Source: Squalus acanthias
Lineage: Eukaryota
DNA: 64,000 nucleotides
Direction: 5' to 3'
Assembly (NCBI GenBank): GCA_030390025.1
Contig: CM059432.1
Location: 59,770,001-59,834,000 of the forward strand
The notes beneath the pieces were generated by a model. It saw nothing but the letters and a program-made list of their open reading frames with translations, did no database searches and had not been told where the DNA came from. Shown piece by piece: positions 1 through 62,758 of this stretch; the first letter of the stretch is position 1; each line of letters begins with the position of its first letter. The position numbers were made by a program, and so were the translations under genes.

Positions 1-713
1 TCCTGATCCAATGAGTTCATTGAAACATTTGCAGCACTGCACCCAGGTCCTCCTGACCACATCCCTGCTGTTGACCTCCTCTGCAATCTCCAACCAGGCC
101 GTTTGTCACCTGGGGAGGTGTTTTCCACCCCTTGGAAGGGAAGAGGACCTCTCTGCGTGCTTTGACTCCCTCCACAAGCATATGGAAGGAGTCATCGGAG
201 AAGCTGGGTGCAGCCCTCTGCCTCTGTGCAGTCATTTCCAAAGTGTTTTCAGCAGTCCAATGCTGTAGTGCACTGACTGCACTATTTTAGATTAACCTTC
301 AAATGTAATGTGGCCATGGCCCCTTTAAATATGAGAGGTCGCACAACACCAGGTTATAGTCCAACAGTTTTATTTTAAATCACAAGCTTTCGGAAGGAGT
401 TGTAACTCCGAAAGCTTGTGATTTCAAATAAAACTGTTGGACTATAACCTGGTGTTGTGCGACCTCTCAATTTTGTCCACCCCAGTCCAACACCGGCATC
501 TCCGCATCATGGCCCTTTAAATATCCCAGTTGAAAACGGATGACGTCAGCAGACCTGCACCATTTAATGGGGCCGGGTAATGCGCAGGTTGGGTTGAATA
601 GGTCCTATTGATGTAAAGTCATTTTGTGCAGCAGGATGGAGCCAGCAACGGGGTCGCGATCCGCCATGGCCACCACCCGCACCGGACCCTCCCAAGTAGG
701 GAAAATTCTGGCC
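1..713 (-). mobile_element. PIF/Harbinger-type element end with start of Myb/SANT-like gene
   Basis: ORF 17-241 (RAAPSFSDDSFHMLVEGVKARREVLFP...) resembles the other Myb copies; terminal GGCCAGAATTTT ends at 713. Confidence 0.75.
332..512. mobile_element. Penelope-like element terminal remnant forming a 63-bp inverted repeat
   Basis: Arms 332-394 and 407-469 with one mismatch; flanked by the duplication ccctttaaatat (321-332, 513-524); contains a ggag-ttgtaa-ctcc-GAAAGCTT hammerhead half. Confidence 0.65.
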
Positions 714-1720
714 ATAGTGTGTGCTATGCTGCTGTTCTGCAAAGTATACCTCCTGAAAGCATACACAACACATCCAGATTTTAGAATTTGGAAGAGCTAG
801 ACAACCAACCTTGTGGTCACACTACATTCTTCCTTGTAAGAATCCATCAGAATGCAGTATGCATATATTTTCTGTCAGCAGTGTTGGTTCAGGGTACACC
901 TTACAAGATTTATGGAGACAATGGAAACTACATCATTGGCACATTGAAAGTGTACCCTATAGCTTTATTTCCATGAAAGCATGTGTGAAAACAGTGAAAG
1001 GTTGTCTCCATGTTTTGTATGCTGCCTCTGAGGATGCTCCAGGACAAGTTCTGTTGGTACCATAATGTTATGTACCAATAGTAACCATCTGTTGAAATTA
1101 GGATACACTTATCTTAGCACTCCTGATACTTTAACATTTCTTGTGCATTTGCTTCTGCAGACCTGGGAGACTGCACTCATTATCTTATTAACCTCCATTC
1201 AGGCAGCTTGCACCTTTGCTTTCACATGAGCTTTAAAGATGGACACCCTTCTTCGCCACAACTTTTAAAGTAGGGCCTCCAAGATATCATCAAAAGGCAT
1301 TATTTGACATTGTACACTTCTAAAAACTTTTAACAAACCAATTACTAAATATTCCAGTACAAACACTACATCTGGCACATCAAAAAATTCAGTGATGAGC
1401 AGCAGCACTTTAAGAGTCGCTGTCATGATGGATTTCCCACCCCAACCAATCATGTCCCTCCCTGCACTTGTGCATGCACAGAGTCTATTAAAATTAGTAG
1501 GAAGGGCTGGCCTTGCAAAATGTAGCGAGGCCAGCCGTCTGTAATCCTGGCCCAAGCCTGCCTGTGCTACTCTTATTTTTGGAAGAGAGAAAACTGATCT
1601 TGTGCTTCTTTTCCTCAATTAACTTAGTTTTGATGTCTTACATGAAGTTAACTCTTGGTGTAGGAAGGTTGGAGAAACTCATGAAAATCAGCTCTTTTAG
1701 ATTTGTCTGACAATACTTGC

Positions 1721-1853
1721 CTATTGTGGGTAAGAATGAAGCATGGAAATTGTCCTCAGTTAATCTCTTTAATATGGCAGTTTTACCTACATTGGAGTCT
1801 CCCACCATAATTATTTTTGAAAGAATATCTCCAGATAGATTCACTTCTTCCAT
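1721..1853 (-). CDS. Divergent Rab-family small GTPase, first coding exon (exon probably 1721-1891 including 5' UTR)
   Basis: MEEVNLSGDILSKIIMVGDSNVGKTAILKRLTEDNFHASFLPTI(G): beta1, G1 P-loop GDSNVGKT and switch I F-x-x-T-I-G; Kozak AACATGG; acceptor tttcag at 1892-1897; donor AG|GCAAGT in phase 1 within the TIG glycine, the usual first-intron position of Rab8/10/13-like genes. Confidence 0.75.
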
Positions 1854-2419
1854 GTTAAAGCCAGCAGAGTCACAGAGTAAACATCCTTCCACTGAAATTC
1901 ATATACTTATTCAAAATTCAAGCTTGTAGAGGTAACCCTTTCAATTAACTCCTTGTCAGATGGGCCTAACTTGAATAGACAGTCCTCAATTTCTATTTGG
2001 ATGGAATAAGCCTCAATGGACAACAAAGCCTCAAATAACAAGCCTTGGTTCCCTTGGGAAGATAAGATGAGTTTCTTATTAAACAATATGGATGGAAATA
2101 GATGAGGATCAATGGACTGTCCGGAGTTCGCTTGAATAAACAGGATGAGGCTCAATGGACAGCCCTCAGCTCATCAGTGAGCAGGACAAGCCTCAATGGA
2201 CAGGACATGTGTCCATGGACAATGGTGTCTTGATGCATAGGGAAAGTTTCAGATGGCTAGTCCTCAGTGCCTCAAGGAGCAGCAGTTAGTTCTTCAGTGC
2301 TCAAGCCCTCTTCAGTTCCTCCTTGTATAGGTCAGATCAAGCTTCAAGGGTAAGCCTTGAGTTCCTCTTCAGACAGGAAAGGATGGGGCCCAATGGGAAA
2401 CCCTCTCTGCATAGGCCAG

Positions 2420-2930
2420 AACGAGTCACAGTGAAACGTTCGCCGCTTTTCGATGGACTGGAGAAGTTTCAGTGAGGTCAATTCCACTCTGTATAGCACA
2501 GGGCCGGTCTAATGGCAACTCCCATTTCTTCGTCGGAGAAGCTCGGACGTGTCTCAAAGGACAGGACAATTCGCAGTGGACAGCGCCACCAGTCCAAGCG
2601 CTACGTGAATTCCTCTCTTCGTACCTAATCCCGATGTAAATCGCGGAGCTGTAGTTTAAAAAACTGTTGAACGGTGCCTCGGGCCCAGAGCGGCGATGCA
2701 CTTGAACGGGTCTGAGCCGCTGCTCGTTCTGACCCACGTGCTCCCTCGCGCCCATCAACCGACGGCTCAAGGCTGCGCGAGCTCCAGCAGGCACGAGCCG
2801 CCCGCCGACCTCCTTCCAATCAGAGACAATCGGCGTGGCGACGTCATACAACCCGCTCAGAAGCGCCGGACTTGGGAGTCAGGATCGGAAATCTGAACAA
2901 ACCAGTAGGGCATTGTGGCGGAGGGGTAGC
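2420..2930 (-). promoter_or_regulatory. CpG-rich non-repetitive segment, putative promoter / 5' UTR exon of the Rab-like gene
   Basis: Abrupt CpG enrichment against CpG-poor flanks, 0.5-1 kb upstream of the Rab exon; CRE-like TGACGTC near 2840; possible donor TAG|gtacga at 2625. Confidence 0.5.
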
Positions 2931-3104
2931 ACAGTGACTTAGCACTGCCGCTTGGGGTCAGCTAAAACATTGTCGCATGAATACATATTTTAAATTGTCT
3001 CATGTCGCACTCAGATTGTGGTAGCTCATCTTTTAAGACGGGTTTATCATTAATACTCACGCTCTATTCTGCAGACTTGCATTTCAAGTCAGATAGCAAT
3101 ACAG

Positions 3105-3263
3105 GTTAGGTTGGAAAGGGAATTGGATACATATTTGAAAAGGAAAAAAAAATGCAGGGCTCCGGGGAAAGAGTAGAGAAGTGGGGCGAATTGGATAGCT
3201 CTTTCAAAGAGCCAGCACAGGCATGATGGGCCGAATGGCCTCCTGTGCTGAAAGATTCTATGA
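3105..3263 (+). mobile_element. CR1 LINE 3' end fragment
   Basis: Typical CR1 3' UTR gatgggccgaatggcctcct...attctatga tail. Confidence 0.8.
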
Positions 3264-3394
3264 TAGCAAACATTTCAAAAATAATTACTCCTCCCCTCTC
3301 CCCTGTCATATTATTTTCTCCTGGAAAACATTTCAACCACAAAATGTGCCTTTGTTTTACATTACTCCCTTCAAAATGTAATGTTCCATGAAGT

Positions 3395-3848
3395 AGAAAG
3401 AACGACTTGCATTTATATAGCGCCTTTCACGACCACCAGATGTCTCAAAGCACTTTACAGCTAATTAAGTACTTTTATTTTGAAGTGTAGTCACTGTTGT
3501 AATATGGGGAACGCAGCAGCCAATTTGCACACAACAAGCTCTCACAAACAGCAATGTGATAATGACCAGATAATCTGTTTTTGTTATGTTGATTGAGGGA
3601 TAAATATTGAGGGACACCAGGGACCATCAAAAAAGTGCCATGGGATCTTTTACATCCACTTGAGAGAGCAGACAGGGCCTCAGTTTAACATCTCATCCAA
3701 AAGACAACACTGCTGACAGTGCAGCACTCCCTCAGCACTGCAATGGAGTATCAGCCTAGATTTTTGTGCTTAAGTCCCTGGAGTGGGACTATGAACCAAC
3801 AACCTTCTGACTCAGGTGAGAGTGCTACCCACTGAGCCACAGCTGACT
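3395..3848 (-). mobile_element. DeuSINE (SacSINE1-like): tRNA head, Deu-domain, L2-type tail
   Basis: Minus strand carries a tRNA-like head (gtggctcagtgggtagcactctcacc), a Deu-domain-like core (gatgttaaactgaggccctgtctgc...gatgtaaaagatcccatggcact) and the L2 tail (aaaggcgctatataaatgcaagtcgttctttct). Confidence 0.75.
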
Positions 3849-4749
3849 CTCAGATATTGCTGAAATGCAGCAATATCTGGTGAAAGAAGAAACAGAAAAT
3901 GCGTGAAGCACTCCGGCAGCATCTGTGGCGAGAACAAAGTTAATGTTTCAGGTGTGGATGTAGTTTTTTTTTGCTTTTTGTCAATATCTGGTGAAACCTG
4001 CTAAATATTTGCATATTGTAGTGACACCTTGCTCTTAACACCAGAGATCCATAATGTTAGAAAATGTATAGGTCATTTATGTGCATGATTGTGCACAATG
4101 GGTGTGACATGGACTTGGAAACCTGAAAAACATAAAGGGGTATCTTTTATATGATCACAAATGTGCAGTACAGCTAAAATTTAGAGTTGTCCCACACAGT
4201 TTAAAAAAAATCATTATACTGTGTTGGCCATTTGGGAACTAGACTAAAGGATGAAGTGAGAACAGAGTGTTAAATCAACTAGAGAAGCCTTTTTCCACAA
4301 TTGAGTATGCCGAATCATTCACTATAACCACTGGTTCAACATGACCTATTTAATTTTTTTTGCAATTTTTGTTTTTACAAGTTTTTCACGCATTAGAACT
4401 GACAGACCATTACTGTGGAAATAGAATGGCTCCTGGATGAGAACACATTCATGGCATTTCTCATCTGGTTGAGAATAATGTCGGATAGCAGGAAGCAGTG
4501 CTTGATGATTTAAAAATTAATTTTAAACTTGTTCCTCAATTCGACTATTTTCTTAAGAAGCTAATATCTGTTGATACAGCCAGATTAGAAATTTTAATCT
4601 TACTCAACCATCTGCTAATAGTTTCTGTTTATTCAACTGCCTTCAAGAATATTTATCCAGATATTGATCCAGTTTATAAAGACTAGTTGATCTCCTGTGG
4701 TGTTCCACAAAGGTGGTCAAGACTAATTGGAATTTTTCAGGTCAAGCAG

Positions 4750-8728: not shown

Positions 8729-11098
8729 GGGCTACTTGCCGCCACCCGCTTGCACTGCTATCCTGGTGAAAAATGGCAGCCGCCACTCCAGCGCCCTTCT
8801 CTGGCGCGGGACTCGACGTCTGCCATTTTGGTGAGGGCCTTAGTCCTGGATTTTTTTCTTTTAGTGAAGTAGTGGCTTGGTGCAATACATGTTAAAAAGA
8901 TTTTTAAGTGCGCATGGAGTGCAGGGAGTGCTGCTGGATGCTTGGAAGGCCTCGGACGGTAAAGGAAGGCCTCTGAGAAGACAGAAAATGCTGGAAATAC
9001 TCAGCAGGTCAGGCAGCATCCGTGGAGAGAGAAACAGAGTTCATGTCTCAGGTTGAGATGCTGCCTGACCTGCTGAGTATTTCCAGCATTTTATGCTCTT
9101 ATTTCAGATTTACAGCCTCCACTCACAGAGGGAAGAGGAAGAAGCCGAAGAAGAAGATGCAGAGAGGAGGAAGCAGGAGAGGAGGAAGCAGGAGAGGAGG
9201 AAGCAGGAGAGGAGGAAGCAGAAGGAAGGATGCAACCCAGACAGCCCTTTCTGGCCAGGATATCCAGGATGGAATCAACCGCCTGCGGTACCAGTGACCA
9301 CAACCCCAATTCCCCTTTCAACATTTGTCCCACACCTTACCTACCCTCTGTTACTGATCATCACAGCATCCTCTTGGCCACAATGCTGAAAAAAAAGCCA
9401 CCACAAATCGAACTTTCCAATCCAACTTTATACATCTATCCATCCAATATGACATCAAGAAATCAGCTCATCACCCTTATGCATTCCCTAAGTGTGTGTG
9501 TGCCTTTGCCTATCCTACTGATGTCACGCAGTGCTACCCCAGTGGCTGCAGCATGGCTGGTGGAAGGCTGCTGACTTTTAGTGTGGAAACCCGCAGATGG
9601 TCTTGCAGGTCGATGTTGAGGAGCTGGTGGCTGGGAGTATGAAATTGAGTGACGGTGTTTTTTCTTCTACTTCTTCTTTTCACTCTCCTCTCCCTCTTTT
9701 TGGTCACCCACTGGCTGGGCAGGCTGCATTTCTTGGGTGTGTGAAATGAGGAAGGCACAAGGGTGGAGTTGTGGTGAGGGGAGGGCGGGAATGCAAGAGG
9801 TGCATGCGAGAAGTAGGATAACGTATGAAGATACGAGCATCTTGTATCCTTTCTGCCCGCCGCTGGCCAAGGGCTCAGCCATGCCCCTGCCAAGAATGGC
9901 CTGCACAGTCTCCTCCAAGGGGGTGAGCTGAAGCTAGGAATGGGATGTGTGCCTCGTGTTTGGTACAGATTGTTGGTAGGTGAGTGATTGGTGGGGGTGG
10001 GGGGGGCGGAGTCATGCATTGAGCAGTGTGTGAGGCTAGTGGTACAGTTGGTAGGAGATGTCTTTTGAAGATGCATTCACTGACCTTGACCACTGGTCTG
10101 AGGTCATGAGGCTTCCTTCAGCACTGGAGCCAGGTTGTGAGGGCAACACTTCTGACAGTGATCTGCTCCCACATCCTTCTTTCTGGAAGGCCTCCTGGCC
10201 CCTGTGGGTAGAGGACCTCTCTTGCAGTGTTGACCCCCTGCACAAAGCTGGAGTGCTGTGTGCGAGACCCTGGGTGCCCCTTCCCTGGCTTGCTGAGCCA
10301 TTTGTGTTAGTGCTGAAGCACTTTTCCCATATTTTTAGGTGCGGAGGGGAATTCAGCTTTAAGAACTGAAGACTCCCATTTGGAAATTATTTTTACATAT
10401 GATTACATAGGATATATGGCACAGAAACAGGCCATTCAGCCCAACCAGTCTATGCCGGCGTTTATGTTCCACTCAAGCCTCCTCCCGTCTTTCCTCATCT
10501 AACTCTGTCAGCATAACCCTCTATTCCCTTTTCCCTCATATGCTTGTCTGGCCTCCCCTTAAATGCATCTATACTAGTCGCTTCAACCACTCCCTGTGGT
10601 AGCGAATTCCACATTCTCACCACTCTTTGGGTAAAGAAGTTTCTTCTGAATTCCCTATTGGATTTCTCGATGACTATCCTATATTGATGGCTTCTAGTTA
10701 TGCTCTTCCCCACAAGTGGAAACATTTAATGTTAATTTTTTTTCAGAAGACAGTTGAACTGTAAGGGCTAAAAATGGCCTAATTTTACACGATTTTTATT
10801 TATTTCATTTCAGAAGGCAGTTCCCCTTTAAGAGATTGAACTGCTTTCTGAAATGACAGCCTTGCTTTCAGAGCAGGTTGTTCTTGCTGCAATGACACTA
10901 CGGCCACGCTACATTGGGGCCTCTTGCTGGGATGAACGCCACCAGGACGGCGTTGTACAGTGAGTTTAATGCTGGGCTAATGTTAATTAGTCCCCAGCGC
11001 CAATTTACCGGTCCTACCAGCACCACCATTTTCAGCAGCCGTTAACATCAGCCCACAGTGGCACCGGCAGGTTTTTAGCCTTTTCAACTTTTTAGCCC
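8729..11098 (-). mobile_element. Non-autonomous Harbinger derivative (deleted Myb gene, transposase 3' stub, embedded Penelope hairpin) inserted in a CR1
   Basis: Ends GGGCTA... / ...TTTTTAGCCC; 8860-10390 is an inverted copy of 42110-43590; CR1 sequence continues on both sides (~8455-8725 and 11099-11585). Confidence 0.75.
10395..10726 (-). mobile_element. 5'-truncated CR1 inserted in the Harbinger derivative
   Basis: Encodes RRNFFTQRVVRMWNSLP plus CR1 3' UTR; absent from the sister copy near 42100. Confidence 0.85.
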
Positions 11099-11585
11099 AA
11101 GATGCCTTACTAACTGCTTTGTTAATCTGTCCTGCCACCTTCAAAGATTTGTGCACAAGCACCCCCAGGTCTCTCTGTTCTTGCACCCCCTTTAAAATTG
11201 TATCATTTAGTGTGTATGGTCTCTCCTCATTCTTCCTACCAAAATGTATCACCTCACACTTCTCTGCGTTGAATTCCACCAGCCTGTCTATGTCTTCTTG
11301 AAGTCTATTACTATCTTCCTCACTGTTTACTACACTTCCAAATTTCCTGTCATCTGCAAATTTCGAAATTGTGCCCTGTACCCTCAAGTCCAAATCATTA
11401 ATGTATATCAAAAACAGCAGTGTCCTAGTACTGAAAGCCACTCACCACAACCCTTTGTTTTCTATCCCTTAGCCAATTTTGTATCCATGCTGCTACTGCC
11501 CATTTTATCGCATGGGCTTCAATTTTGAAACACCTTTTGAAAGTCCATATGCACAACATCAACTGCACTGCCCTCATCCACCCTC
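11099..11585 (-). mobile_element. CR1 reverse transcriptase fragment
   Basis: FLIYINDLD...ISKFADD...EKCEVIHFG motifs. Confidence 0.85.
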
Positions 11586-12213: not shown

Positions 12214-14207
12214 AGAATCGTAGAATGATACAGCACAGAAGGAGGCCATTCGGCCCATCGTGCCTGTGCCGGATCTTTGGTAGAGCTATCCAATTAATCT
12301 CACTCACCCTGTAAATTTTTTCCCTTTATTTATCCAATTCCCTTTTGAACGTTACTATTGAATCTGCTTCCACCACCCTTTCGGATAGTGCATTCCAGAT
12401 CACAACAACTCGCTGTATTAAAAAAATATTTCCTCATGTCGTCTCTCACCAATCACCTTAAATCTGTGTCCTCTGGTTACCGACCCTTAGAATCATAGAA
12501 ATTTACGGCACAGAAGGAGGCTATTTGGCTCTTCGTGGCTGTGCCGGCTAAAAAGAGCTATCCAGCCTAATCCCACTTTCCAGCTCTTGGTCCGTAGCCT
12601 TGTAAGTTACAGCACTTCAAGTGCATATCCAAGTATGTCTTAAATGCGATGAGGGTTTCTGCCTCTACCACCCTTTCAGGCAGTGAGTTCCAGACCCCCA
12701 CCGCCCTCTGGGTGAAAAATTTCTCCTCAGCTCTGCTCTAATTTTTCTACCAATTGCTTTAAATCTATGCCCCCTGGTTATTGACCTCTCTGCTAAGAGA
12801 AATAGGTCCTTCTTATCCACTCTATCTAGGCCCCTCAAAATTTTATACACCTCAATTAAGTCTCCCCTCAGCCTCCTCTGTTACAAAGAAAACAACCCCA
12901 GCCCAGTTACGGGGATAGGATGGGATATGTTAGGGGGAATTAAATACGTGGGGTTACGGGGATAGGGTGGGATATGTGTCGGTGCAGGCTCGATGGGGAT
13001 TCTGTGTGAGAAAGCAGGGACAGGGTACTGGATTTGGATGATCAGCCATGATCGTATTGAATGGCGGAGCAGGCTCGACGGGCTGAATGGCCTACTCCTG
13101 CTCCTAGTTTCTATAACTATGTCTATGTCTATCCAATCTTTCCTCATAGCTAAAATTCTCCAGTCCTGGCAACATCCTCATAAATCTCCGTTGTACTCTC
13201 TCTAGTGTAATCACATTTTTCCTGTAATGTGGTGACCAGAATTGTACGCAGTACTCTAGCTGTGGCCTAACTAGTGTTTTATACAGTTCAAGCATAACCT
13301 CCCTGCTCTTATATTCTATGCCTTGGATAATAAAGGAAAGTATCCCACATGCCTTCTTAACCACCCCTTAAATGCATCTGTACTAGTCGCTTCAACCACT
13401 CCCTGTGGTAGCGAATTCCACATTCTCACCACTCTTTGGGTATCTACCTATCCTGCTACCTTCAGGGATCTGTGGACATGCACTCCAAAGTCTCTCTGTT
13501 CCTCTACACTTCTCAGTATCCTACCATTTATAGTGTATTCCCTTGCCTTGTTAGCCCTCCCTAAATGCATTATCTCACACTTCTCTGGATTGAATTCCAT
13601 TTGCCACTTTTCTGCCTACCTGACCAGTCCATTGATATCTTCCTGCAGTCTACAGCTTTCTTCCTCACTATCAACCACACAGCCAATTTTTGTATCATCT
13701 GCAAATTTCTTAATCATGCCCCCTACATTGAAGTCTAAATCATTGATGTATACCACAAAAAGCAAGGGACCTAGTACTGAGCCCTGCGGAACCCCACTGG
13801 AAACAGCCTTCCAGTCACAAAAACACCCTTCGACCATTACCCTTTGTTTGCTGCCACTGAGCTAATTTTGGATCCAACTTGGCACTTTCCCTTGGATCCC
13901 ATGGGCTTTTACTTTTCTGACCAGTTTGTCATGTGGGACCTTGTCAAAAGCCTTCCTAAAATCCGTGTAGACTACATCAAATGCACTACCCTCACTGACC
14001 CTCCTTATTAGCTCCTCAAAAAATTTAATCAAGTTAGTCAGACACGACCTTCCCTTAACAAATCCATCCTTTCGCCACTGGAAACAGTTTCTCCTTATTT
14101 ACCATATCAAAACCCTTCATGATTTTGAACACCTCTATCAAATCTCCTCTTAACCTTCTATGCTCTAAGGAGAATAATTCAAGCTTCTCCAGTCCCTCCA
14201 CATAACT
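12214..14207 (-). mobile_element. Cluster of CR1 3' portions (RT domain and 3' UTRs)
   Basis: SGVPQGSVLGP, KFADDTK and LVRPQLEYCVQFWSP motifs; two attctatgattcta-type tails at ~12214 and ~12489. Confidence 0.9.
12903..13128 (+). mobile_element. Small antisense insertion in CR1: HE1-SINE-like 3' part joined to a CR1 3' UTR
   Basis: Interrupts aacaaccccagc|ctatccaatctt (contiguous in the 45240 copy); contains ggggttacggggatagggtggg...gtcggtgcaggctcgatggg followed by a CR1 tail. Confidence 0.55.
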
Positions 14208-17200
14208 CTCCCCTTACTCCTCTGGCACTTTCTCCTCCTTTGAGCATCTCACCTTGTTCCACCCCTCTCACCTCTCATTTAAAATTCTCGTTCTCTACCA
14301 CCCACCCAAGTACCACAAAAATGTTATCACCAAAATATCTTCACTGCTTTCCTCCCTCAGCCTCTGCATCGAGCGACTTCTCATCCTCGGTGATTTCAAC
14401 CTGCATCTCAATTCACCTTGCTCTCTCTCCTCTGAGTTCACTACCCTCCTATCCTCCCTTAATCTCTCCTTCCATGTAAACTCCCCAACCCATATTCATG
14501 GCCACCCCCTTGATCTTTCCATCTCTCGTGGCCTCGCTCCTCCCATCGTGTCAATCGCAGATAAGGCCATTTCTGACTAATTCCTTGTATCGCTCTCCAC
14601 CCACATCCCCCTTCTCCCCAACCCTACTTCCTTCTGTGTCCGCCCCTGGAAAAAACTCTCTCTCAACTCACTTACAACTGCACTTATGAAATCCCAACTG
14701 TCCAGCCTTTAGTCCTCCATTCACCACGACATTTCTGCTGCTACCGATCTGCTCAACCACCACCTTGGAAACCCTAGTCCCTATTAAAACCATTACTCCC
14801 TCTCACACTGGCCATTCTCTCTGGTACAACCCTCATCTCCGCTCCCTTATGTCCAAGGGACGCAGACTTGAACAGCTATGGTGGACAACTGGTTTAGCCA
14901 TTCACCGCCAGATCTGGCTGGACCACATAAAGCATTATCGGGTCCTGCTCTCATCTGCCAAAACTGCTCACTATTCCAGGATCATTCTCCAATGCAAAGA
15001 CAACCCCCGTCTCCTTTTCTCTACTGCTAAACGTCTTCTTAAACCCCTTTCCCCTGTCTCCTCCACCCTCACCTACAACAACAAGTGCAAGGAGCTCATG
15101 GACTTCTTTGTCTGTAAGATTGAGACCATCCGATCAGCTGCCTCTGCCACTTCCCTTCTTTCCCCTAGCCTATTGGGCCAAATATCCTCTAAGGTTCCCC
15201 CCTGCCCAAGCCCTGAACTCGCATCTTTCTCCAGTTTCTCTCCAATCACTCCTCCTGCCCTCTCTGTTCTCATCTTATCCATGAGACCCACTTCCTGCTC
15301 CCCTGACCATATTCCCACTAAACTGCTGACCACCCAACTTCCTTTCCTGGCTCCCATTTTGACTGACATTGTTAACGGTTCTCTCTCCTCAGGTACTGTC
15401 CCCCTCTCCTTCAACTCTGCCGTCATCACCCTTCTCCTCAAAAAAACAACCCTTGACCCCCTCCGCCCTTACAAACTACAGCCTCATCTCCAATCTCCCT
15501 TTCCTCTCCAAAGTCCTTGAACATGTTGCCACCTCCCAAATCTGTGCCCATCTTTCCTGGAATTCCATGTTTGAATCCCTCCAATCAGGTTTCCACTCCT
15601 GCCACAGTACCGAAACAGCTCTCATCAAAGTCACAAATGACATCGTTTGTGACTGTGACAAAGGTGAACTATCCCTTCTTGTCCTTCTCCACCTGTCTGC
15701 AGCCTTTGACACGGTTGACCACTCCAGCCTCCTCAAATGCCTCTCCACCGTCGTCCAACTGGGTGGGACGGCACTCGCCTGGTTCCGTTCTTATCTATCT
15801 AATCGTAGCCAGAGAATCACCTGCAATGGCTTCTCTTCCCGCTCCCGCATCGTTACCTCTGGTGTCCCCCAAGGATCTATCCTTGGTCTCCTCCTATTTC
15901 TCATCTATATGCTGCTTCTCGGCGAAATCATCCGAAAACACAGCATCAGTTTCCACATGTGCGCTGATGACACCCAGCTCTACCTCACCACCATTTCTTT
16001 TGACCCCTCCACTGTCTCTAAATTGTCAGACTGCTTGTCCAACATCCAGTACTGGATGAGCAGAAATTTTCCCCAATTAAATATTGGGAAGACTGAAGCC
16101 ATTGGGCTGGATTTTGTCATTGGGGGCGGGTTGGGGGCGGTCAGGTGGTTGGCGGGTCACGACCCCGCCTCCGATGTGAGGCGTGACAATTGAGCGATTT
16201 TCCCCTAATTGGGCACTTGATTTCCAGCGTGTGGGAACCCCTGGCCCAATGAGTATTTTGCTGCTGAAACTCGCCCCTGATGACATCATCTATGCAGCTG
16301 CATTTGAGGCTTGCAAGCAGCCTTGGTTCTTTTTCTGCCTTACAACTTTTGCATTATACTCTGAGGGATTCGTGCTCCAACCACGTCAAGCAGCAGACCA
16401 AAGTGTGCACCCCGTTTCGATGAGAACTCCCTCCAAGCTCTGGTAGGAAGGAAAAAGCCTCCCCAACAGACCAAAGCTGTGTGGCTGCAAGTGGCACAGG
16501 AGGTGAATGCGATTTCAATGTGCAGCAGAACCTGGCTGCAGTGCAGAAAGAGGTTTCATGACTTCTCCGCACAGGAAAAGTGAGTATTCCATCCAAATGA
16601 CCTTCAATCTGATCCCCATCGCCTCTCATCACCAGCACTCTGCTTTGTCAACCTCCTCCTCCACATCCCACTTCACCCTTACATCCCTGGACCCTTAACC
16701 ATTTCCTCTCTCTGTATGTTCACATTCACTTAACTATTCGACTATGCAGCCCTCACACTCCCTATCACTGTGATGCAATGACAACAACTTACAACACACA
16801 GGGAGGGCCCTTGGTATTGGCATCTCACTCCTTTGTGTCCTTCTAAGCATCTATGCTATGGATTCTCTACACTCACTCCTTCATTCTCACTCAAACTCCA
16901 CTTGTGTCCCTCATTGCAGGAAAAGAGAGCCCACAATAAGAGGGAGAGGGTGAGGACAGGAGGAGGGCCACCCTCAATAGCCCAGCTCACCACTGCAGAG
17001 GAGGCGGCCCTGGAGACCGTGGGAGTCGAGGAGGATGCGCAAGTGGGAGATGGACGCAACAGAGCAAGCTGGTGACAGAAAAGTTTTTCATATCTCTCAT
17101 TGACATTGCATGAGTGACTGATATTGATACTAATGCTCTAACAGATTGACTTATGATCATCTACACAATTCAATGTGCATGCAACGTTTATCTCACATGT

Positions 17201-25285: not shown

Positions 25286-26862
25286 GGGCTAGAAATTTGT
25301 TAGAACCAAGAAATGGGCAGTGTTTAGACTAAAAATGGTTAAGTACCGCCACCTGAAAATTGTCTAGGCTGCACGCAAAATTCATCCTCACCTCTCATTA
25401 AAATGATTGCAGTCATGATTCTCATCTAAAAACCCAAGCTCATTGGCGTTACACTGAAAAGATGGATCAATATCGGTGGGAGTCTAAACGCAAGTAATGA
25501 TTGCCACAGGCTTTTTTCACTACTTAAAGGGAAGGTTCATTGATGCTGCAGCACCTCATTCTCAGTATTGTTGGTTGTTCAGCTGCCTCAACAACTATAA
25601 GAAGGACAAGGAGAAGGAGCACTTATTTACAAATCCTGATGGCAGATCGCTGCCCCAGGAAGAGCCTGCAGGTTTTCCGATGAAGCTTTGGAGGCATTGG
25701 TTTTAGAGGTGGAGAGAAGGCGGGCAGTCCTGTACCCGCCAACTGGCAGGAGGCCCTCGCCACAAGTCTGCCAGACTATGTGGAGGGAGGTGGCACAACA
25801 TGTCACGGGCAGCACTGTGGTTCCCAGGTCCCACACACAGTGCAGGAAGAAGTTTAACGAGCTCACATAGGTGGTCAGGGTGAGTGAAGGCTTCAACAAT
25901 TGCTACATACCACCATCTGTACCATAAGTTTCACACACTGCTCAATGCACCACACCCACAGCACTCACCCACCAACAATCTCTACCTAGCAACACTCACA
26001 CCCACATCTCACACCTTGCACACAATGACAGCTATTCAACTATTGCAGGCACAAGGGTCATTAGTTATTAGAATTGATCTGATATGTGTGATAGGTTTAT
26101 AGATACATTTATTAATTGTGTTTGGAATATTTTGTGGTCTCTCTCATTTCACCTTTGCGCCCAGGAGGACGCTGTGATATGGTGTGAGACAGGGATGGTA
26201 TGCTGGGGATGTGGTGAGCTACGGGGATCTGGGGTTTCATTCATGCGAATCGGAGTCTGATGAGCCGGTCATGGACAGCCCGTCCGGAAGGCCGATTGTC
26301 TGGCTGCCTCCGCCGTAGATCCTGGAGGGCAAGGTCCACTGCCAGTGCAGCCCCCATGACTTTTAGCAAGTGTTGTAGGTTGAAGCTTTTCAGAAATAAT
26401 TATGGAGTTTTACACTTGCCACAACATTCCCTGATAACAAAGTACATTGAAATGAATAAAGAAAACTCTTTCAGTAGCAGGAAGTAGTACACAGCCACTC
26501 AAACTTCAAAAACCTATCAGATCCGAGTGATTGGTGATGATCCCTTTAAATAGCGTCGCTGGAGCCGGCTTCCTGCTGCTGCACGCCACCTGAAGCCGTC
26601 ATTGTTTTCTCCAGCTGGTAAGTTCATTGGCTGTAACAAAGTTGGGAGTTTGGGCGTCAAGTGAGCATTGCACACTCACTGACATCACGATCTCCGTGAT
26701 GGCGAGGCCCCTGGCGAGCGCGTTCAGAGGCAGCGCTACCTGCAACACCGATATGGCGTGCGGCTCTGGAACCGGCATCAGGTGGCGTTAAAGCTCTCAA
26801 TGGTGTTTTAGCGCCATCCCGTGGCGCTAACGTGTGGCGCAAACCACACAAATTTCTCGCCC
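25286..26862 (+). mobile_element. Internally deleted Harbinger-type element
   Basis: TIRs GGGCTAGAAATTTGT / ACAAATTTCTCGCCC; perfect AGT TSD (25283-25285, 26863-26865); Myb exon 1 remnant (LEVERRRAVLYP...QCRKKFNEL) and fused transposase ends. Confidence 0.92.
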
Positions 26863-26865
26863 AGT

Positions 26866-27259
26866 GACTTTACAAAATATAGATGTAAATTACTGAACAA
26901 AAGTTAAATGCAGACAAGAATTATTTCCAACTGTGCAATAAAATTAAATCACACAGCATTTTTAAAGTTTTTATTTAAGTATGTTTTCAACAGACAAGCT
27001 TCATTTGCACTTTCTTATCCTGTACAAAATTTACATATTGTTATATTCTACTACATCAGTTATTTTACTTGGTCATGCCTTTCTTCTGAAAGATACAAAG
27101 ATTTACATAACATTATTTTCATAGTCATAAATTACCATAGTAAAAAAGCACATTTCAAACATTAAATATGTTTGGGAGTAAGAATTCAGTATTTTGCCCG
27201 ATATCATTTAAATAAATTGTCTCAGTGTTTATATTAATGTTGTGAACTGACAAATTGTT
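26866..27259 (-). other. KLHL14: Proximal KLHL14 3' UTR with candidate polyadenylation signal
   Basis: AT-rich non-repetitive sequence after the TAA; AATAAA on the minus strand at 26970-26975; bounded by a Harbinger insertion at 26862. Confidence 0.55.
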
Positions 27260-27400
27260 TTATTTATTATATGGCACACAGGTTGGCAATGTAACAGTTG
27301 CACATGCTGGGCCAGCTAGTGGCTCAGCAACTTCCCCTTCCAGTTCTGTCCAAGTGGCTTTCTCAGGGCTGTAGCAAATTGTAGATGATTTGTAGGCCCC
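27260..27400 (-). CDS. KLHL14: Kelch-like protein 14, last coding exon with stop codon
   Basis: Translates GAYKSSTICYSPEKATWTELEGEVAEPLAGPACATVTLPTCVPYNK*; acceptor attacag, phase 0; matches the recalled KLHL14 C-terminus. Confidence 0.96.
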   Translation of the reverse strand, partial: GAYKSSTICYSPEKATWTELEGEVAEPLAGPACATVTLPTCVPYNK

Positions 27401-34928: not shown

Positions 34929-35086
34929 CATACTCCAGCTGTAGCCACCAACAAGGTAAATATTGTCGTCCAGCACTGCGCAGCCTGGACCACTGCGACC
35001 CTCCAAGATAGGAGTTTGCAGAATGTTCCATTGGTCACATTTAGGGTCATAACATTCAACGAGCATAACATCAAGATGTGAGAAAC
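34929..35086 (-). CDS. KLHL14: Kelch-like protein 14, penultimate coding exon
   Basis: Translates (G)FSHLDVMLVECYDPKCDQWNILQTPILEGRSGPGCAVLDDNIYLVGGYSWSM; acceptor ttggtctag, donor ATG|gtgaga; 158 nt, phase 1 to 0. Confidence 0.96.
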
Positions 35087-37729: not shown

Positions 37730-37874
37730 GTCTGAAGCCCAATTTTCAGCAGCATTATTAGCTGAAATGGAACACAAAGACAAGAAGGGGCAAAGTCGCA
37801 GCAGTGATGTGGAAGTGAGGATGGGAAGCCAGAAGAAAAATCGTGAGGGAAAGTATACAAATTTAAAAGATATT

Positions 37875-39131
37875 GGGCTAAAACTTTTCAGGTTTAGCGC
37901 TGGCCGTTACCACCCGATTCGTGGGAAAAAATGACGGCCGCCACACTTCTGCCCGCTGTCGGCGGGTCCCATGGTAGCCGCCATTTTCGGCATGCTGCAG
38001 TTGCCTGCGCTCGCCGAAAGTATTGTAATGAGTCGGAGCGTGACGTCAATCGCCGTGCAATGCTGAGTTGACGCCCGCTCATCCATTTCGGATGTCGCTG
38101 CTCCTATTGTGGCCCTCTCTAAAGCACGCCAGTCCGTGCAGCTGCTAAAAGCACTTCAGCAGCGTTAACGGCAATGAGGAGTCTGGCAGGTCTTGGCAGA
38201 ATGTAGACGAGGATGAAGGTTGACAAGTACAAAACACCTCAGATGGATGCCAGAACTTCAAATGCCCACATTGCCAAGGTTCTTCTTCTATACTTTCATT
38301 TTCTGCCCATCGGTGGGAGGGGGGGCGGAGGGGGGTGGTTGCATTTTCTGGTGGCTTTCCAGGAGGCCTGCAGTGTTTGTGGGTCAGTAAATCAATGGGT
38401 GAAACCTTGTGGAACAAGCTTTTAATTCAGAACTGAACACCTGCACAAAACTGCAAATCCCTCGGCGAATTCCCAACAAATAAAAGAAACAAATTCCTAA
38501 AGAGCATCAGATTGGCTAGAACTCCATTGCAACGTTTGAAGATCATCTCTGATAAGATCTCTTTTATCTTTATGATAGCATCACCAGAACGCCACCTCCT
38601 AGTAAATCTGGACTCAACTGCTCAAGATTTTAAGAAATTATAATTAATTTATTCAAAATTCCATAACCAATTATGTATCAAATAATTATTTTGTGTTGAG
38701 TATGCAAGACCCACTAAAAGCTGGCATGATTACTACACATTTAAACACTTTCAAGAGTGACCACTGGGGAAAGATTAGTGTTACAGAGAACGCGGATGCA
38801 TTCATTTCATGAACTATTAAAAAATCACCAAACATAGTTAATAATTGGGTGGCAGGTAATATTGTTGTAGCAAGTACGGCAACTGTTCTGTACATGGCCT
38901 ACAGGTTCGCGCCTTTCTTCCCTGTTCTCCTTCACTGCAAATCGGACACAGACGCGACCTATGGCTGCCTGCTGAGCTTAGTGCTGGAAAGAGCGCGTTA
39001 CACCACAAATTTTCCGCACCGCTGATGTTAATTAGCAGGCATCAGGCTGCCTGCGCTCTCTCGGCGGGAGGCCGTTAGCCTTGGCTGGCGCTGTTACCGG
39101 CAGGTCTCCAGCGTACTGGAATTTTTTGCCC
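37875..39131. mobile_element. Non-autonomous Harbinger-type element
   Basis: Ends GGGCTAAAACTTTTCAG / CTGGAATTTTTTGCCC; ATT TSD (37872-37874, 39132-39134); left subterminal region shared with 19095, 44550-44790 and 60200-60452. Confidence 0.85.
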
Positions 39132-39871: not shown

Positions 39872-40030
39872 CTTTTAAATGGTTTCCCCCAATAGCGTAC
39901 AGACGATCATTCACCACAGCCAGAACATGAATTGCCCGTTTGGTGTTCATGTCCTGTTTTCTGGCCCATACATCCATTATTGGGTCATAGCAGTAGAGCC
40001 ACGATACATATTCACCATTATGAACGCCTC
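39872..40030 (-). CDS. KLHL14: Kelch-like protein 14, internal coding exon (3rd from last; absent from the ORF track)
   Basis: Translates (G)GVHNGEYVSWLYCYDPIMDVWARKQDMNTKRAIHVLAVVNDRLYAIGGNHLK(G); acceptor cacttgtag, donor AAG|gtgtgt; 159 nt, phase 1 to 1, in frame with both neighbours. Confidence 0.96.
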
Positions 40031-52550: not shown

Positions 52551-53539
52551 CCCGGCACTGCATCTCGTTGTATGCTTTTCCAAAAGTCTCCAATCTTCAA
52601 ACAAAACTGAGGCAATTCATAATTATATATTTAAACTTCCTGTCCCTTATGTTTCCAGTGGCAATCCCAATTTGTTGTCAAACTCTTCGCACTGTTCAAC
52701 CTGTACCTTTGCAGTAGGTGTGCTCCATCCTTAACCATCTCATGGGTTGAGACCCATCAAGTTATATTATTTTCTGTATCCATTCCAGCTCCAGGTCTTA
52801 ATGTCACAGCAGGTGCCACGTGGTCAGTTATTTTCATGGAAGAGGCAGTGATCTGCCAATATTTGATTAGGGCTGACTGGGACTGGTGATTGTGGGTGGG
52901 GGGGATGGTGGTGTGGGATGAAAGCTTGCCATGTTCAAATAATAAAAGTAATTGCTTGACTCAATAAAACAAATATTTTAATATTACAATTCTGAATTAC
53001 AATTACAATACAGAAGCAAACCAGATGGTCACAGTCTCACATTGACCACATGCTCGATCTCCCTCTGTTGCAACATTATTTGAATTTTGGCGCCAAGTAC
53101 TGCTGCCATTCAGTCATTATATACAAGCACAATTCCTTTGCCTATTGATAATCATCTGTATTATCCAAAGGGCATCATGGGTCTTCCGAGGCTCAGCCAA
53201 TAGTCAGGGCTGGAATCTTTGATTTGTGTTGGGCACCAGCCTCCAGTGATTAAACAAAGTAGTCTCTGACGATGAAGCATGAACTCCCACAAAGATAAAA
53301 TTAAGAAGACACAGTCGATCAAAACTGTTTGAGATCACCAGCCAGCAGTGAGACCAACCAAAGGCAAAGCCTGAGTGGTTCAAAGTATTTCACCCCTAAT
53401 ATTAACATTTAGGGACGAATTGTGCTGATGCAGCCGGCTCACAACGGCTTGATAATAAAATTATTGGGCTGATTCCCCAATTAGACATTCGCGGTAAAGA
53501 GCAGAGCTTGCAGGGGATGCTGGTCTGGAAATCCCAGTC

Positions 53540-55763
53540 CCTAACAGCAAGGGCACTTGTGGAGTGGCAGTGGTGGGAGGACGAATGCTGTCCTCCTGAG
53601 AGAGGACAGCAGGTTCATCCTCCACAGAGCCAATGCCACTCCCCTGGGGCGGTGCCTCAGCAATCCTAGTAATCTGTTGGAGGACAGATTGCAGCACTGC
53701 TGGGACACCCTGCAAGCCCTTTTCAACACTGGTAAACGCAGCCACGATGGCAGCAGTCTGAGCTTGCGTGGCAGCACTCAGATGTTGGGTTGCTTCTGCT
53801 TGTGCTGCAATGGTAGCTGAGACATCAGCCATCAGACCTTGCTTTATGGTTGGGTCCCCAAGTGCACTAATGGAGTTGGCCATCACTTCCATCCTGGAAA
53901 TCATGGGCTCCAAGCTCTGTGCAAAGCCCCGTGCAAAGTTGGTGCCGGACTCCTCCATATACCTTGATTGTGACAACAGGCTCTCTGGTGGGCCTGCCAA
54001 TGTACCAAGCATTTCTGTGTGCAGGCCCATCAGCCTTCTTCTGTAGGCCGCCCCATCAAAGTCCTCATCTGAATCCTGTGCAGCAGAACTCGTGTGTGAC
54101 CTCGCCCTCCGGGGAGCTTGCACCTGTACAACCCTTTCCCCCTGCCCTGGCTGCAGGCCACTCGTGCCCGGTGGCTCACTACATGCAGATCCCGCCTCTA
54201 TACTACCCACTAAAGTGCATGCAGTGCAGTATCTGAGCTGGTGCCTGTGAGTGTGAGATCGAGTGACGGTGTCTCTTCTTCTCTATCACTCTCCTCTTGC
54301 TCTTCCTGCACTTGCTAGCCAGGTTGGAGTTCTTGGGTATCTGAAAGGAGAAAGGCACAAGGATAGGGTTGTGGTGAGGGGAGCAGAGGGAAAGCAAGAT
54401 GTGCATGCTTACACCATAAGCAGCTTGTAAGTGAGAAGAGATTGTGGGATGAGGCGGAAGTGGGATGTGAGGAGGAGGAGGAGGAGGAGGATTAGGCGTG
54501 ACGACCTTGAATGGTTTCAGCCTCGCCAATCACCACAGCCTCAGTATTAGCCCCTCCAATAATGTCGAGCACGGTCTCCTCCAGCTGGGTCAAGACGTGC
54601 AGTCTTGCCCGTCCTCTGCCGGTTAGCTGCTGCTGCCTGCGGTTATGAGCCACCTTGCACTGCAAGAGAGAGGGAAGTGTGTGAATGATGTGGTGCAATG
54701 TGATTGGGTGATGTGTGTGTGAGTGAGTGTGGTGCAATGTGATTGGGTGATGTGTGTGTCAGTGAGTGTGGTGCAATGTGATTGGGTGATGTGTGTGTCA
54801 GTGAGTGTGGTGCAATGTGATTGGGTGATGTGTGTGTCAGTGAGTGTGGTGCAATGTGATTGGGTGATGTGTGTCAGTGAGTGTGGTGCAATGTGATTGG
54901 GTGATGTGTGTCAGTGAGTGTGGTGCAATGTGATTGGGTGATGTGTGTGTCAGTGAGTGTGGTGAAATGTGATTGGGTGATGTGTGTGTCAGTGAGTGAG
55001 TGTGGTGCAATGTGATTGGGTGATGTGCCTGTCGTGGTTGAATAGCTGGCAGTGTGTGCAAGGTGCGAGATGTGGGTGTGAGGGTGAGGTGAAGCTATGA
55101 ATGTGAGGTATGAGTCCTGATTGAGAGAGATTGTTTGTAGCTGAGTGATGGGAGTGTGTTGCTTGAGCAGTGTGTGAGGCTAATGGTGCAGCTGGTGGGA
55201 GATTGCATTTGAAGATACATTCACTGACCTTGACCATCCATGTGAGGTCATTGATCTCCTTTCGGCACTGCATCCAGGCCCTTTGGGCTAAACTGCTGGC
55301 ATTGACCACGTTGGCTATCTGCTCCCACTGCTTTCGCAGTGTGCGTCTGGAGGGCCTCCTGGCCCCCTGCAGATGGAGTACACCTACTGCACTAAGGCCT
55401 CTAGTGCTGTGTTTGAGAACCTTGATGCCCTTTCTCTGGCCTGTTGAGCCATTATTCAGTCTTCTTTCTCAAAATTGCCTCCACAACCAGTTCCAGCAGC
55501 TGCTGCAGGGAGAATGCACCTCCCCTTTAAGAGGAGCAGACTGCCTTTAAGAAGTGGAGGCTAGCTTTAATTGGTGTTAGCCTCACACAAACTTGGGTCC
55601 CCTGCTGAGTGTTCAGCCACTCAGCAGCGCATTCAGCTACAATCATTATAATTAGCAGACAGCATGAAGGTCGCGGGCTACCTCCATTCCTTTCAACGGG
55701 CGCGGAGCATTTGTGTATTGCGATCCCCGCACCCGTTTTCGGGTCTAATCCAATTTTTAGCCC
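53540..55763 (-). mobile_element. Harbinger half-element carrying the three-exon Myb/SANT pseudogene
   Basis: TIR GGGCTAAAAATTGG at 55763; WEQIANVVNASSLAQRAWMQCRKEINDL exon, KVAHNRRQQQLTG exon, and exon 3 (DEDFDGAAYRRRLM). Confidence 0.88.
54680..55027. repeat. Minisatellite, ~37-41-bp unit, about 9 copies
   Basis: Unit gtgagtgtggtgcaatgtgattgggtgatgtgtgtgtca, located in intron 1 of the Myb pseudogene. Confidence 0.95.
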
Positions 55764-56198: not shown

Positions 56199-56389
56199 CT
56201 GATATGTAAATTTTTCCGTTGTGCACTGCACCAGCGTGAGCTGCCAGGGGTTGAGGCAGAGAGGACAAGTAGCACCATTCATTGGCTTCCAGATTGTAAC
56301 ATTCAACACTTGACAAATAACCAGTTTCGTTCCTTCCACCAATCACGTACAAATGTTTATCCAGAAGGCAGGCATAGAAACTTGCTCGT
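56199..56389 (-). CDS. KLHL14: Kelch-like protein 14, internal coding exon (4th from last)
   Basis: Translates (R)RASFYACLLDKHLYVIGGRNETGYLSSVECYNLEANEWCYLSSLPQPLAAHAGAVHNGKIYIS(G), near-identical to recalled vertebrate KLHL14; acceptor ttttactgcag, donor CAG|gtacct; 191 nt, phase 2 to 1. Confidence 0.96.
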
Positions 56390-58055: not shown

Positions 58056-60452
58056 GGGGGAAGAATTCATGCACACCAACAGAATTGCCGGTGTCACTGG
58101 CAACTCGAGTTAACGGTCGCTGAAAATGGTCGCAGCAAATGAAGTCCTCTACCCACAGGAGGCCCTCCGGAAAGAACGATGTGGGACCAGATCACCGAGG
58201 CTGTCACTGCCAGCAGTGTCGCCCACACCACCTGGCTCTGGTGCGCAAAGAAGCTTCATCACCTCAGACCACTGGTCAAGGTCAGTGAATGCATCTTCAA
58301 AAGCTGTCTCCTACCAACTGCATCACTCGCCTCACACACTGCTCAATGCACGACTGCCCCCTCCCGCCCCCCCCGTATCACACACCTACCAACAATCTGT
58401 AACAATCACGAGACACATCTCCCATTCCTAGCCTCACCTCACTCCCTTGGAGGAGACGGTGCAGGCCATTCTTGGCAGGGACATGGCTGAGCCCTTGGCC
58501 AGATACTGGTATCCTCACACGTTATCCTCCTTCTCGCATGCACCTCTTGCTTTCTCACCCTCCCCTCACCACAACTGCACCGTGCTGCCTTCCTCATTTC
58601 ACACACCCAAAAAATACAGCCTGCCCAGCCAGTGGTTGGCCAAGAAGAGGGAGAGGAGAGTGAAGAAGGTTAGTGTGCACAATTAAAGCACATGGGATTG
58701 GGGGTAATATACTGGCATGGACTGAAAATTGGTTAACAGACAGGAAACATAGAGTAGGAATAAATGGGTCTTTTTCGGGGTGGCAGGCGGTGATTAGTGG
58801 GGTACCGCAGGGATCAGTGCTTGGGCCCCAGCTATTCACAATATATATAAATGATTTGGATGAGGGAACCAAATGTAATATTTCCAAGTTTGCTGACAAC
58901 AACAAAACTAGGTGGGATTGTGAGTTGTGAGGAGGATGCAAAGAGGCTTCAAGGCGATTTAGACAAGTTGAGTGAGTGGGCAAATATATGGCAGATGCAG
59001 TATAACGTGGATAAATGTGAAGTTATCCACTTTGGTAGGAAAAACAGAAAGGCAGAGTATTATTTAAATGGTGATAGATTGGGAAATGTTGATGTACAGA
59101 GGGACCTGGGTGTCCTTGTACACCAGTCACTGAAAGCAAACATGCAGGTGCAGCAAGCAGTTAGGAAGGCAAATGGTATGTTGGCCTTCATTGCAAGAGG
59201 ATTTGAGTACAGGAGCAAGGATGTCTTACTACAGTTATACAGGGCCTTGGTGAAACGACACCTGGTGTACTGTGTGCAGTTTTGGTCTCCTTACCTCAGA
59301 AAGGATATACTTGCCATAGAGGGAGTGCAGCGAAGGTTCACCAGACTGATTCCTGGGATGGCAGGACTGTCATATGAGGAGAGATTTGGTCGACTAGGCC
59401 TGTATTCATGAGAGTTTAGAAGAATGAGAGGGGATCTCATTGAAACGTATAAAATTCTGACAGGGCTAGACAGACTGGATGCAGGGAGGATGTTTCCCCT
59501 GGCTGGGGGGTCTAGAACGAGGGGTCACAGTCTCAGGTTACGGGGTAGGACATTTAGGACTGAATGAGGAGAAAATTCTTCACTCAGAGGGTGGTGAACC
59601 TGTGGAATTCTCTACCACAGAAGGCTGTGGCGGTCAAGTCACTGAATATATTTAAGAAGGAGATAGATAGATTTCTAGACGCAAAAGGCATCAAGGGGTA
59701 TGGGGAGAAAGCAGGAATATGGTATTGAGATAGAGGATCAGCCATGATCATATTGAATGGCAGAGCAGGCTCGAAGGGCCGAATGGCCTACTCCTGCTCC
59801 TAGTTTTCTATATTTCTAAGAAGAAAAAACGCCATCACTCGATTTCACACTCCCAGCCACCAGCTCCTCAAGGTCGACCAGCAAGGCCATTTGCAGTGTC
59901 CCCCACTGAACATCAGCAGCCTTGCACCAGCCATGCTGCAGACTGAGGTATCACTAGTTGAGATCAGTGGGATAGGCAAAGGCACACGCAAGACAATCAC
60001 TAAGAGAATGCATAAGGGTGATGAGTTGATTTCATGATGTCATATTGGATGGATAGATGTATAAAGTTGGATTGGAAGGTTTGCTTTATGGTGGCTTTTA
60101 TTTCAGCATCGTGGCCAAGAGGACGCTGTGATGCTCAGTAACAGAGGGAAGGTAAGGTGTGGGACTAATGTTGAAAGGGGAATTGGGGTTGTGGATTCCT
60201 GGCGTGCTTAGGACCCAGTGCTAGGGTCGAAGATCGGCGTGGTGACGTTAAGTTGGCATTGCACGCCAATTGACGTCACCATGCCGCCATTATTTTTTCC
60301 AGGGCGCTGCCAGATACTGGCAGCACAAAGGAAGGGAGGAAAATGGCGGCTGCCATGGGACCCGCCACCAGCTGGCAAAAGAGCGGGATCCCCCATTTTT
60401 TCGCCATTTCATGGCACTATGGAGTGGCGGTAAGTAGATGAATTTCTAGCCC
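58056..60452 (+). mobile_element. Non-autonomous Harbinger derivative (third copy of the deleted-Myb subfamily) inserted in CR1
   Basis: Ends GGGGGAAGAATTCAT / ATGAATTTCTAGCCC; same internal deletions as 42190-43200; CR1 continues on both sides (57990-58055, 60453-60614). Confidence 0.82.
58669..59817 (+). mobile_element. 5'-truncated CR1 inserted into the Harbinger derivative
   Basis: RT C-terminal half plus 3' UTR; probable TSD aagaag (58663-58668, 59818-59823). Confidence 0.92.
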
Positions 60453-60942
60453 AAAGAATCGATAATTTGAGATAAAATTAGTGCGTATTTAGAAAAGCAT
60501 ATGTTAATCAAGGACAGCTGTCGTGTATTTGTTAAAGGCAAGTCATGTTTGAAAAATGTAAGAGTTTTTGAAGAAGTGACCGATTGTATAGATGGAGGGA
60601 CTGCAGTAGATGTAGGCCTAGAATTTTGTCAGCCCCCGGAAATGGGCGCGGGGATCGCGATGCGCGATCAACCCACGCCCGTTCAGAGGAATGCAGGCAG
60701 CACCTGAACTTTATGCTGTCTGCTGATTATCATGATTGCGGCGTTCAGCCCAACGCTGATCGCGCTGCTGAGGGGCCCAACGCTCAGCAGGGGGCCCAAG
60801 TTTGTGTGAGGCAAGCACCATGTAAAGTTAGCCTGCACTACTTAAAGGCAGTCGGCACCTCTTAAAGAGAAGGTGCATTCTGCCTGCAGCAGCTCATTGA
60901 ACTGGCTGGGGAAGACAGTGAGAGGAGGAGAAAAGAAAAATT

Positions 60943-62593: not shown

Positions 62594-62758
62594 CTTCGTT
62601 ATGTAATATTGGATGAATTGATGCACAAAGTTGGTTTGGAATGTTTCTTTTGTAGTGGATTTTATTTCAGCATTGTGGCCAAGTAGACGCTGTGATGGTC
62701 AGTAACAGAGTGAAGGTAAGGTGTGGGACTGTTGGTGAATGTGGAATTGGGGTTGCGT

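Follow-up and report, generated by a model that had tools for sequence, protein, structure and literature searches.

The window, a stretch of 64,000 nucleotides of Squalus acanthias DNA, carries near its start the first coding exon of a Rab10-like gene. This exon spans 1891 to 1721 on the minus strand. Its 5' untranslated part (1854 to 1891) follows a candidate acceptor with AG at 1893-1892, and the ATG at 1853-1851 stands in a strong context, with A at -3 and G at +4, as the initial annotation had stated. The frame is open from there to 1721, where GCAAGT follows, giving a coding segment (1721 to 1853, minus strand) of 44 codons plus one base. The encoded peptide of 45 residues, the split glycine counted, contains the GDSNVGKT P-loop and the FLPTIG switch I exactly as first described; two Rab family hallmarks, the G1 P-loop and the G2 threonine, are thus present in the window's own exon. 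Pfam assigned the peptide to Ras (E=6.7e-8) and to Roc (E 2e-8), and four shark proteins matched it over its whole length (E 1e-16 to 1e-18, 87-89% identity, 100% cover). Judged by these sequence comparisons, the match to Rab GTPases is not due to chance, and the exon is the real one that had been proposed. Tandem Repeats Finder detected no repeat in 1500-3200.

The splice donor had been placed at the conserved phase-1 TIG position. This position is confirmed, inside the glycine codon of TIG/IDF, but the site is of the GC-AG type, AG/GCAAGT (1715 to 1720, minus strand), with a use suggested by full-length shark models, and a second donor-like site, TAG/GTAAAA, lies within the P-loop codons (1781 to 1787, minus strand). 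Splicing at the internal site would remove 22 codons in frame, including those for Lys-Thr of the P-loop, and an in-frame isoform devoid of P-loop is therefore possible. Shark models P0007, P0012 and P0013 have no first coding exon and are joined at the same point as the GC donor, while P0009 is spliced at the internal site; these omissions and truncations are probably explained by the GC donor together with the internal GT. Competition between the GT site in the P-loop (1787) and the GC site (1721) is a setting in which shark gene models often choose wrongly or omit the exon. A six-frame motif scan found no later Rab exon in 1-1720, so the remainder of the gene should lie outside the window, and we infer a whole Rab10-like gene in Squalus acanthias.

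A CpG island belonging to the Rab10-like gene lies at 2401 to 3000 and is likely a promoter with a first non-coding exon. GC content is 0.56-0.57 and CpG o/e 1.06-1.09, the highest of the window, whose median is 0.32. The island contains a donor-like TAG/GTACGA at 2625, a CCAAT at about 2816-2820 and a CRE-like GACGTCA at about 2840-2846. Transcript evidence was drawn from contigs of four runs (two studies) that were guessed to be RNA, none being on record as such; the runs were selected with 1600-3000 and their contigs mapped to 1-4500. The contigs cover 1718-2099 and 2238-2763 at a depth of 2-10, the second stretch in three of the four runs, and depth is zero at 751-1050, 2851-3000 and 4051-4350. 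The acceptor AG at 1892 is present as claimed, but its use is not borne out by these contigs, which cross it unspliced in three of the four runs (X6 1718-2099, X7 1787-2031, X14 1862-2053). The contig end at 1718 and the uncovered stretches are weak hints for splicing, and one X7 contig that ends at 1787, with no joint shown, hints weakly at use of the internal donor. Among the 15 joints listed of 193 in these runs, where repeats dominate, none was a spliced joint of the Rab10-like gene. Because the runs were selected with 1600-3000, the contigs lend weak support to a transcript starting at the island.

The gene upstream of the Rab exon, on the same strand, is a kelch-repeat gene by its sequence, with exons at 56199 to 56389 (Pfam Kelch_1, E=2.5e-17), 39872 to 40030, 34929 to 35086 and, as the last coding exon, 27260 to 27400, all on the minus strand. 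We take it to be KLHL14, in agreement with the initial annotation; PDB and Atlas searches with window sequences returned generic Rab and kelch names only, and not KLHL14. The Rab gene had been placed directly downstream of KLHL14. It does lie downstream of the kelch gene, but not directly, as 25.4 kb separate the kelch stop (27260) from the Rab ATG. CpG-rich patches were also observed at 26601-27000, in the 3' region of the kelch gene (o/e 0.94), and at 37801-38200, in a kelch intron (o/e 0.99). Elsewhere, broken frames recur at 9077-10400, 53400-55500, 58100-58700 and 60900-63900, with a putative likeness to Harbinger-type transposon proteins (Myb/SANT-like and nuclease-like), and there are many CR1/L2-like reverse-transcriptase fragments, such as those at 10986-11441, 13107-14100, 14200-16200 and 58600-59650.

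The exon peptide shares 39-43 of its 45 residues with eight shark proteins that have a full G domain, and 34 with a chimaera protein. The four shark clusters that it matched hold 10 members, all named 'Rab-10-like' by RefSeq. A full-length query added two further sharks, a chimaera, bowfin, sturgeon, paddlefish and one frog, and a profile search, of which the best 120 of 7709 hits were kept (8000 candidates scored, cut 282 bits), added bichir, gar, coelacanth, many frogs, axolotl, caecilians, birds, snakes, anole and turtle. The idea of a lineage-specific subfamily thus has to be given up, as relatives span sharks to birds. The gar and bichir members, absent from the profile itself, score 331 and 345 bits, well above the cut, yet no teleost is found among the best 120 of 7709 hits, which is modest evidence, from sequence searching, that teleosts have lost the family. 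Reptile and bird members score 283-290 bits, right at the cut, so the profile search is uninformative on mammals. No cyclostome or invertebrate member was among the hits listed for the full-length query and the profile. A search of 50% representatives returned mostly multi-domain proteins and was the source of outgroups; the six family rows examined from it were all from birds or a tortoise.

In an IQ-TREE analysis of the G domain, comprising 55 rows picked by hand, the 19 rows of the Rab10-like family fall on one side of a branch supported at 100/99, and their internal order follows the species tree. Many outgroups were classed by motif, and four by name or by match to the 2012 supplement cited below. 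The clade contains shark, chimaera, bowfin, gar, sturgeon, bichir, coelacanth, amphibian, reptile and bird proteins; a shark-only gene is thereby ruled out, and in this tree the family is older than the split between sharks and bony vertebrates. The family sits on a long branch and joins Rab10 with moderate support (80/91), at an unresolved fork inside Rab10. In AU tests on a quick tree of 31 rows, the union with jawed-vertebrate Rab10 was not rejected (p 0.28), and a tree that makes the shark copies orthologous to bony-vertebrate Rab10 was rejected (p 0.035). The two hagfish Rab10 proteins, P0043 and P0110 (Myxine, Eptatretus), differ from one another and stand apart in the tree, and are possibly cyclostome paralogues.

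Single residues point the same way. His72, Lys49 and Ile159 are of Rab10 type in all 14 family rows scored, His72 and Lys49 being absent from Rab8/13, and human Rab10 scores highest of six references for nine of nine queries. Moreover, mis-predicted C-termini, compared by eye, break after the same lysine (Lys173) in 12 models of the family and 10 of Rab10, whereas Rab8/13 models break after NVEE/N or KKL. The shared break points to a last intron common to the family and Rab10, and would provide independent though indirect evidence of a Rab10-type gene structure. The initial annotation held that the exon fits no standard paralogue; with this support (80/91; His72, Lys49), it fits the Rab10 lineage. 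Its likeness to Rab19, Rab33 and Rab44 was rejected as well, since the shared string amounts to one variable P-loop position. The Rab33-type protein P0226 has the same GDSNVGKT as the window exon, but with 34-42% identity to the family it is the most distant of the six references; Rab19 and Rab44, which we take to share the string too, were not in the trees.

The family has neither the MAKKTYDLLF N-terminus (RabSF1) nor the >90% G-domain identity of canonical RAB10. Over the G domain its members are 53-62% identical to human Rab10, and the identity between shark and chicken members is 55%; human Rab10, for comparison, shares 92-96% with Rab10 of amphioxus (92%), lamprey and teleosts. On these comparisons, the family is a distinct, ancient and fast-evolving Rab10 paralogue and not RAB10 itself. 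The separate clade, with a single Rab10 in human and mouse, also upholds the earlier suggestion of a Rab paralogue outside the human set.

GAREM1 and GAREM2 are paralogues, and so are ASXL2 and ASXL3. A gene list given for cattle runs HADHB, HADHA, GAREM2, RAB10, KIF3C, ASXL2, DTNB (in a table of PMC11049649), and one for mouse runs Mep1b, Garem1, Klhl14, Ccdc178 and 'Axl3' (in a passage of PMC12342377). No Rab is named in the Garem1-Klhl14 interval of that mouse list, in line with the earlier statement that the protein-coding gene downstream of mammalian KLHL14 is GAREM1 and not a Rab. The paralogy of GAREM1/2 and ASXL2/3 means that a Rab downstream of KLHL14 fills the slot on the GAREM1 side equal to that of RAB10 beside GAREM2, which makes it a likely genome-duplication twin of RAB10. 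The synteny is indirect, built on these two gene lists and on the kelch neighbour in the window, GAREM1 lying outside it. We infer that the Rab10-like gene is likely an ohnologue of RAB10 from early vertebrate genome duplication. Frog and chicken have both Rab10 and Rab10_2 among 27 Rab10 labels, and human and mouse one Rab10 each (PMC3425129 supplement 4). With no second copy there, a loss had rightly been supposed for some vertebrates: judging from human and mouse, the gene has likely been lost in these two species, and it has possibly been lost in teleosts.

An origin by small-scale duplication or transposition of Rab10 in early jawed vertebrates, instead of whole-genome duplication, would suit a tree that leaves the sister relation with jawed-vertebrate RAB10 unresolved, and a synteny known from published gene lists, not from genome reads. 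We regard it as unlikely, given that RAB10 and the KLHL14 interval both have GAREM and ASXL paralogues as neighbours; for a retrocopy in particular, the retained last intron argues against it.

It is still less probable that the family is the survivor of an older lineage of the Rab8 group, either RabX4, which vertebrates are said to have lost, or a relative of Rab15, that has been pulled toward Rab10. The AU tests do leave such unions standing (p 0.44 for RabX4, p 0.39 for Rab15, with one RabX4 row and one or two Rab15 rows). Insect RabX4 proteins also have GDSNVGKT, and Leu74, found in 9 of 14 family rows, occurs in all eight RabX4 rows. However, the same eight rows have Arg72 and none has ETSAK, against His72 in every family row and ETSAK in 13 of 14. 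Neither the EVSCK/EASAK-type G5 nor the CXC ends of RabX4 are found in the family, whose identity to RabX4 (45-53%) is lower than that to Rab10 (51-62% in this comparison), and RabX4 falls outside Rab10 plus the family in the 55-row tree.

The exon in Squalus acanthias could in principle be a relic, or be rarely spliced productively because of its GC donor, internal GT donor and upstream ATGs, so that little full-length protein is made. The lack of a downstream exon within the window, the shallow and unspliced contigs of the RNA-guessed runs (depth 2-10), and the nine ATGs in 2800-1854, counted as if this were one exon, are in keeping with such a state. The frame, however, is intact, the proteins of Heterodontus and Heptranchias match the peptide at 43 of 45 residues, a likely CpG-island promoter is in place and other sharks have full-length models, and we consider a relic very improbable. 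A divergent Rab8 or Rab13 paralogue is the least credible reading: Rab8A, Rab8B and Rab13 share the Rab8 group, the fold and 49-62% identity with the family, Leu140 is of Rab8/13 type in 14 of 14 rows, and the 45-residue peptide alone scores alike with Sec4, Rab8A and Rab10 in the PDB, but AU tests reject the union (p 0.008 for Rab8A/B, 0.041 for Rab13), and His72, where those proteins have Arg or Lys, and break points that indicate a Rab10-type last intron speak against it.

Human RAB10 (PDB-derived P0075) is among the closest known systems, and its comparison with the family suggests what was kept and what was rebuilt. Common to both are the G1-G5 motifs, His72, Lys49, the hydrophobic triad, the last-intron position and, likely, the paralogous GAREM/ASXL neighbours. 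Full-length relatives have WDTAGQE (G3), NKxD (G4), SAK (G5), IGIDF and Y(Y/F)RG, and keep G1 to G5 together with Gln68 and the triad F46/W63/Y78. An AlphaFold model of P0005 adopts a Rab fold (pLDDT 72.6). From the retained nucleotide motifs and the modelled fold, a normal GDP/GTP switch is predicted. By contrast with RAB10, the RabSF1 N-terminus is replaced, Lys4 being kept in 0 of 14 family rows, Tyr6 in 0 and Asp7 in 2; Phe takes the place of Tyr79 in all 14 rows; and the P-loop position of Gly19 is variable (C 51, N 29, F 16, L 11, D 6, S 5, W 1 and 18 not scored, in 137 rows). Members P0170, P0332, P0177 and P0184 (bird, snake, turtle) have an insertion of about five residues just before switch I.

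Two further differences concern mostly sharks and are known from relatives, because the later exons of the Squalus gene lie outside the window. Thr73 is the LRRK2 site and controls GDI binding, according to the part of PMC4769169 that treats it. At this position, 121 of the 137 rows of the family have Thr, and alanine stands in 12 of the 13 from sharks (11 species). The C-terminus is CCxx or CxxCx in bony-vertebrate members; in six shark models, drawn from five species, another 8-10 residues follow the CC motif. The tail of 8-10 residues after CC is conserved in the shark members P0002, P0005, P0011, P0012, P0013 and P0404. Such a tail is unusual for a Rab.

These features can be arranged in a tentative mechanism. 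A GEF would load GTP onto the Rab10-like GTPase, and the resulting switch would act on vesicles of the secretory or recycling routes. The conserved core of the switch (IGIDF, WDTAGQE, F46/W63/Y78) would bind GDI and general partners of the Rab8 family. The bMERB domains contact Rab10 at Tyr6, Asp7, Leu9, Lys11 and the N-terminal lysines, as described in a section of PMC5026484. With Lys4, Tyr6 and Asp7 replaced, Phe10 also changed, and an acidic N-terminus in the window peptide, weaker binding to the bMERB domains of MICAL/EHBP1 is predicted, which would narrow the part played in trafficking. Where alanine stands at the Thr73 position, as in most sharks, LRRK2 control would be removed, and the displaced CC may alter the lipid anchor. 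Altogether, we consider it probable that this exon is the beginning of a gene for a Rab10-derived GTPase, common to sharks through birds and likely the twin of RAB10 from whole-genome duplication, with a predicted GDP/GTP switch and likely different effectors.

The gene had been put forward as possibly uncharacterised. Our literature search, with bioRxiv supplements and subscription papers outside its scope, found no description of the family or of its function, in keeping with that view, but the family is not unseen. RefSeq names it 'ras-related protein Rab-10-like' (XP_067833163.1, XP_419183.4, NP_001107281.1), and XeLa_Rab10_2 and GaGa_Rab10_2 of Klöpper et al. (2012; PMC3425129 supplement 4) are members. 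These Xenopus laevis and chicken proteins group in the same clade as the window exon and exist there as alignment labels only; the main text, in the portion dealing with Rab8b and Rab13 as vertebrate Rab8 duplications, leaves a second Rab10 unmentioned (PMC3425129). The family is thus already automatically annotated and catalogued in a supplement, and is a molecule of a familiar type that here reveals no new mechanism. In a table on lens regeneration in newt (PMC3628982), a transcript similar to the family member X. laevis LOC495396 appears to be listed among the highly regulated ones. With a fast-evolving twin persisting in chicken and Xenopus, the view that vertebrates have a single Rab10 gene would need correcting. 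Chicken and Xenopus copies are often named simply 'Rab-10', so expression and knock-down work on the two genes can be confused. Coppola et al. 2019 reportedly treats chordate Rabs and may already discuss the family.

A bolder reading, which we hold to be possible though doubtful, is that of an undescribed 'Rab10B' subfamily that dates from the vertebrate genome duplications and survives in sharks, non-teleost fishes, amphibians, reptiles and birds after independent losses in mammals and in teleosts, with effectors of its own and, in sharks, without LRRK2 phosphorylation (T73A) and with a non-terminal CC anchor. If it were true, this would be a trafficking route invisible to mouse and zebrafish models. 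The family would offer a natural test of the residues that set effector choice in the Rab8 family, and its shark members a natural non-phosphorylatable LRRK2 site.
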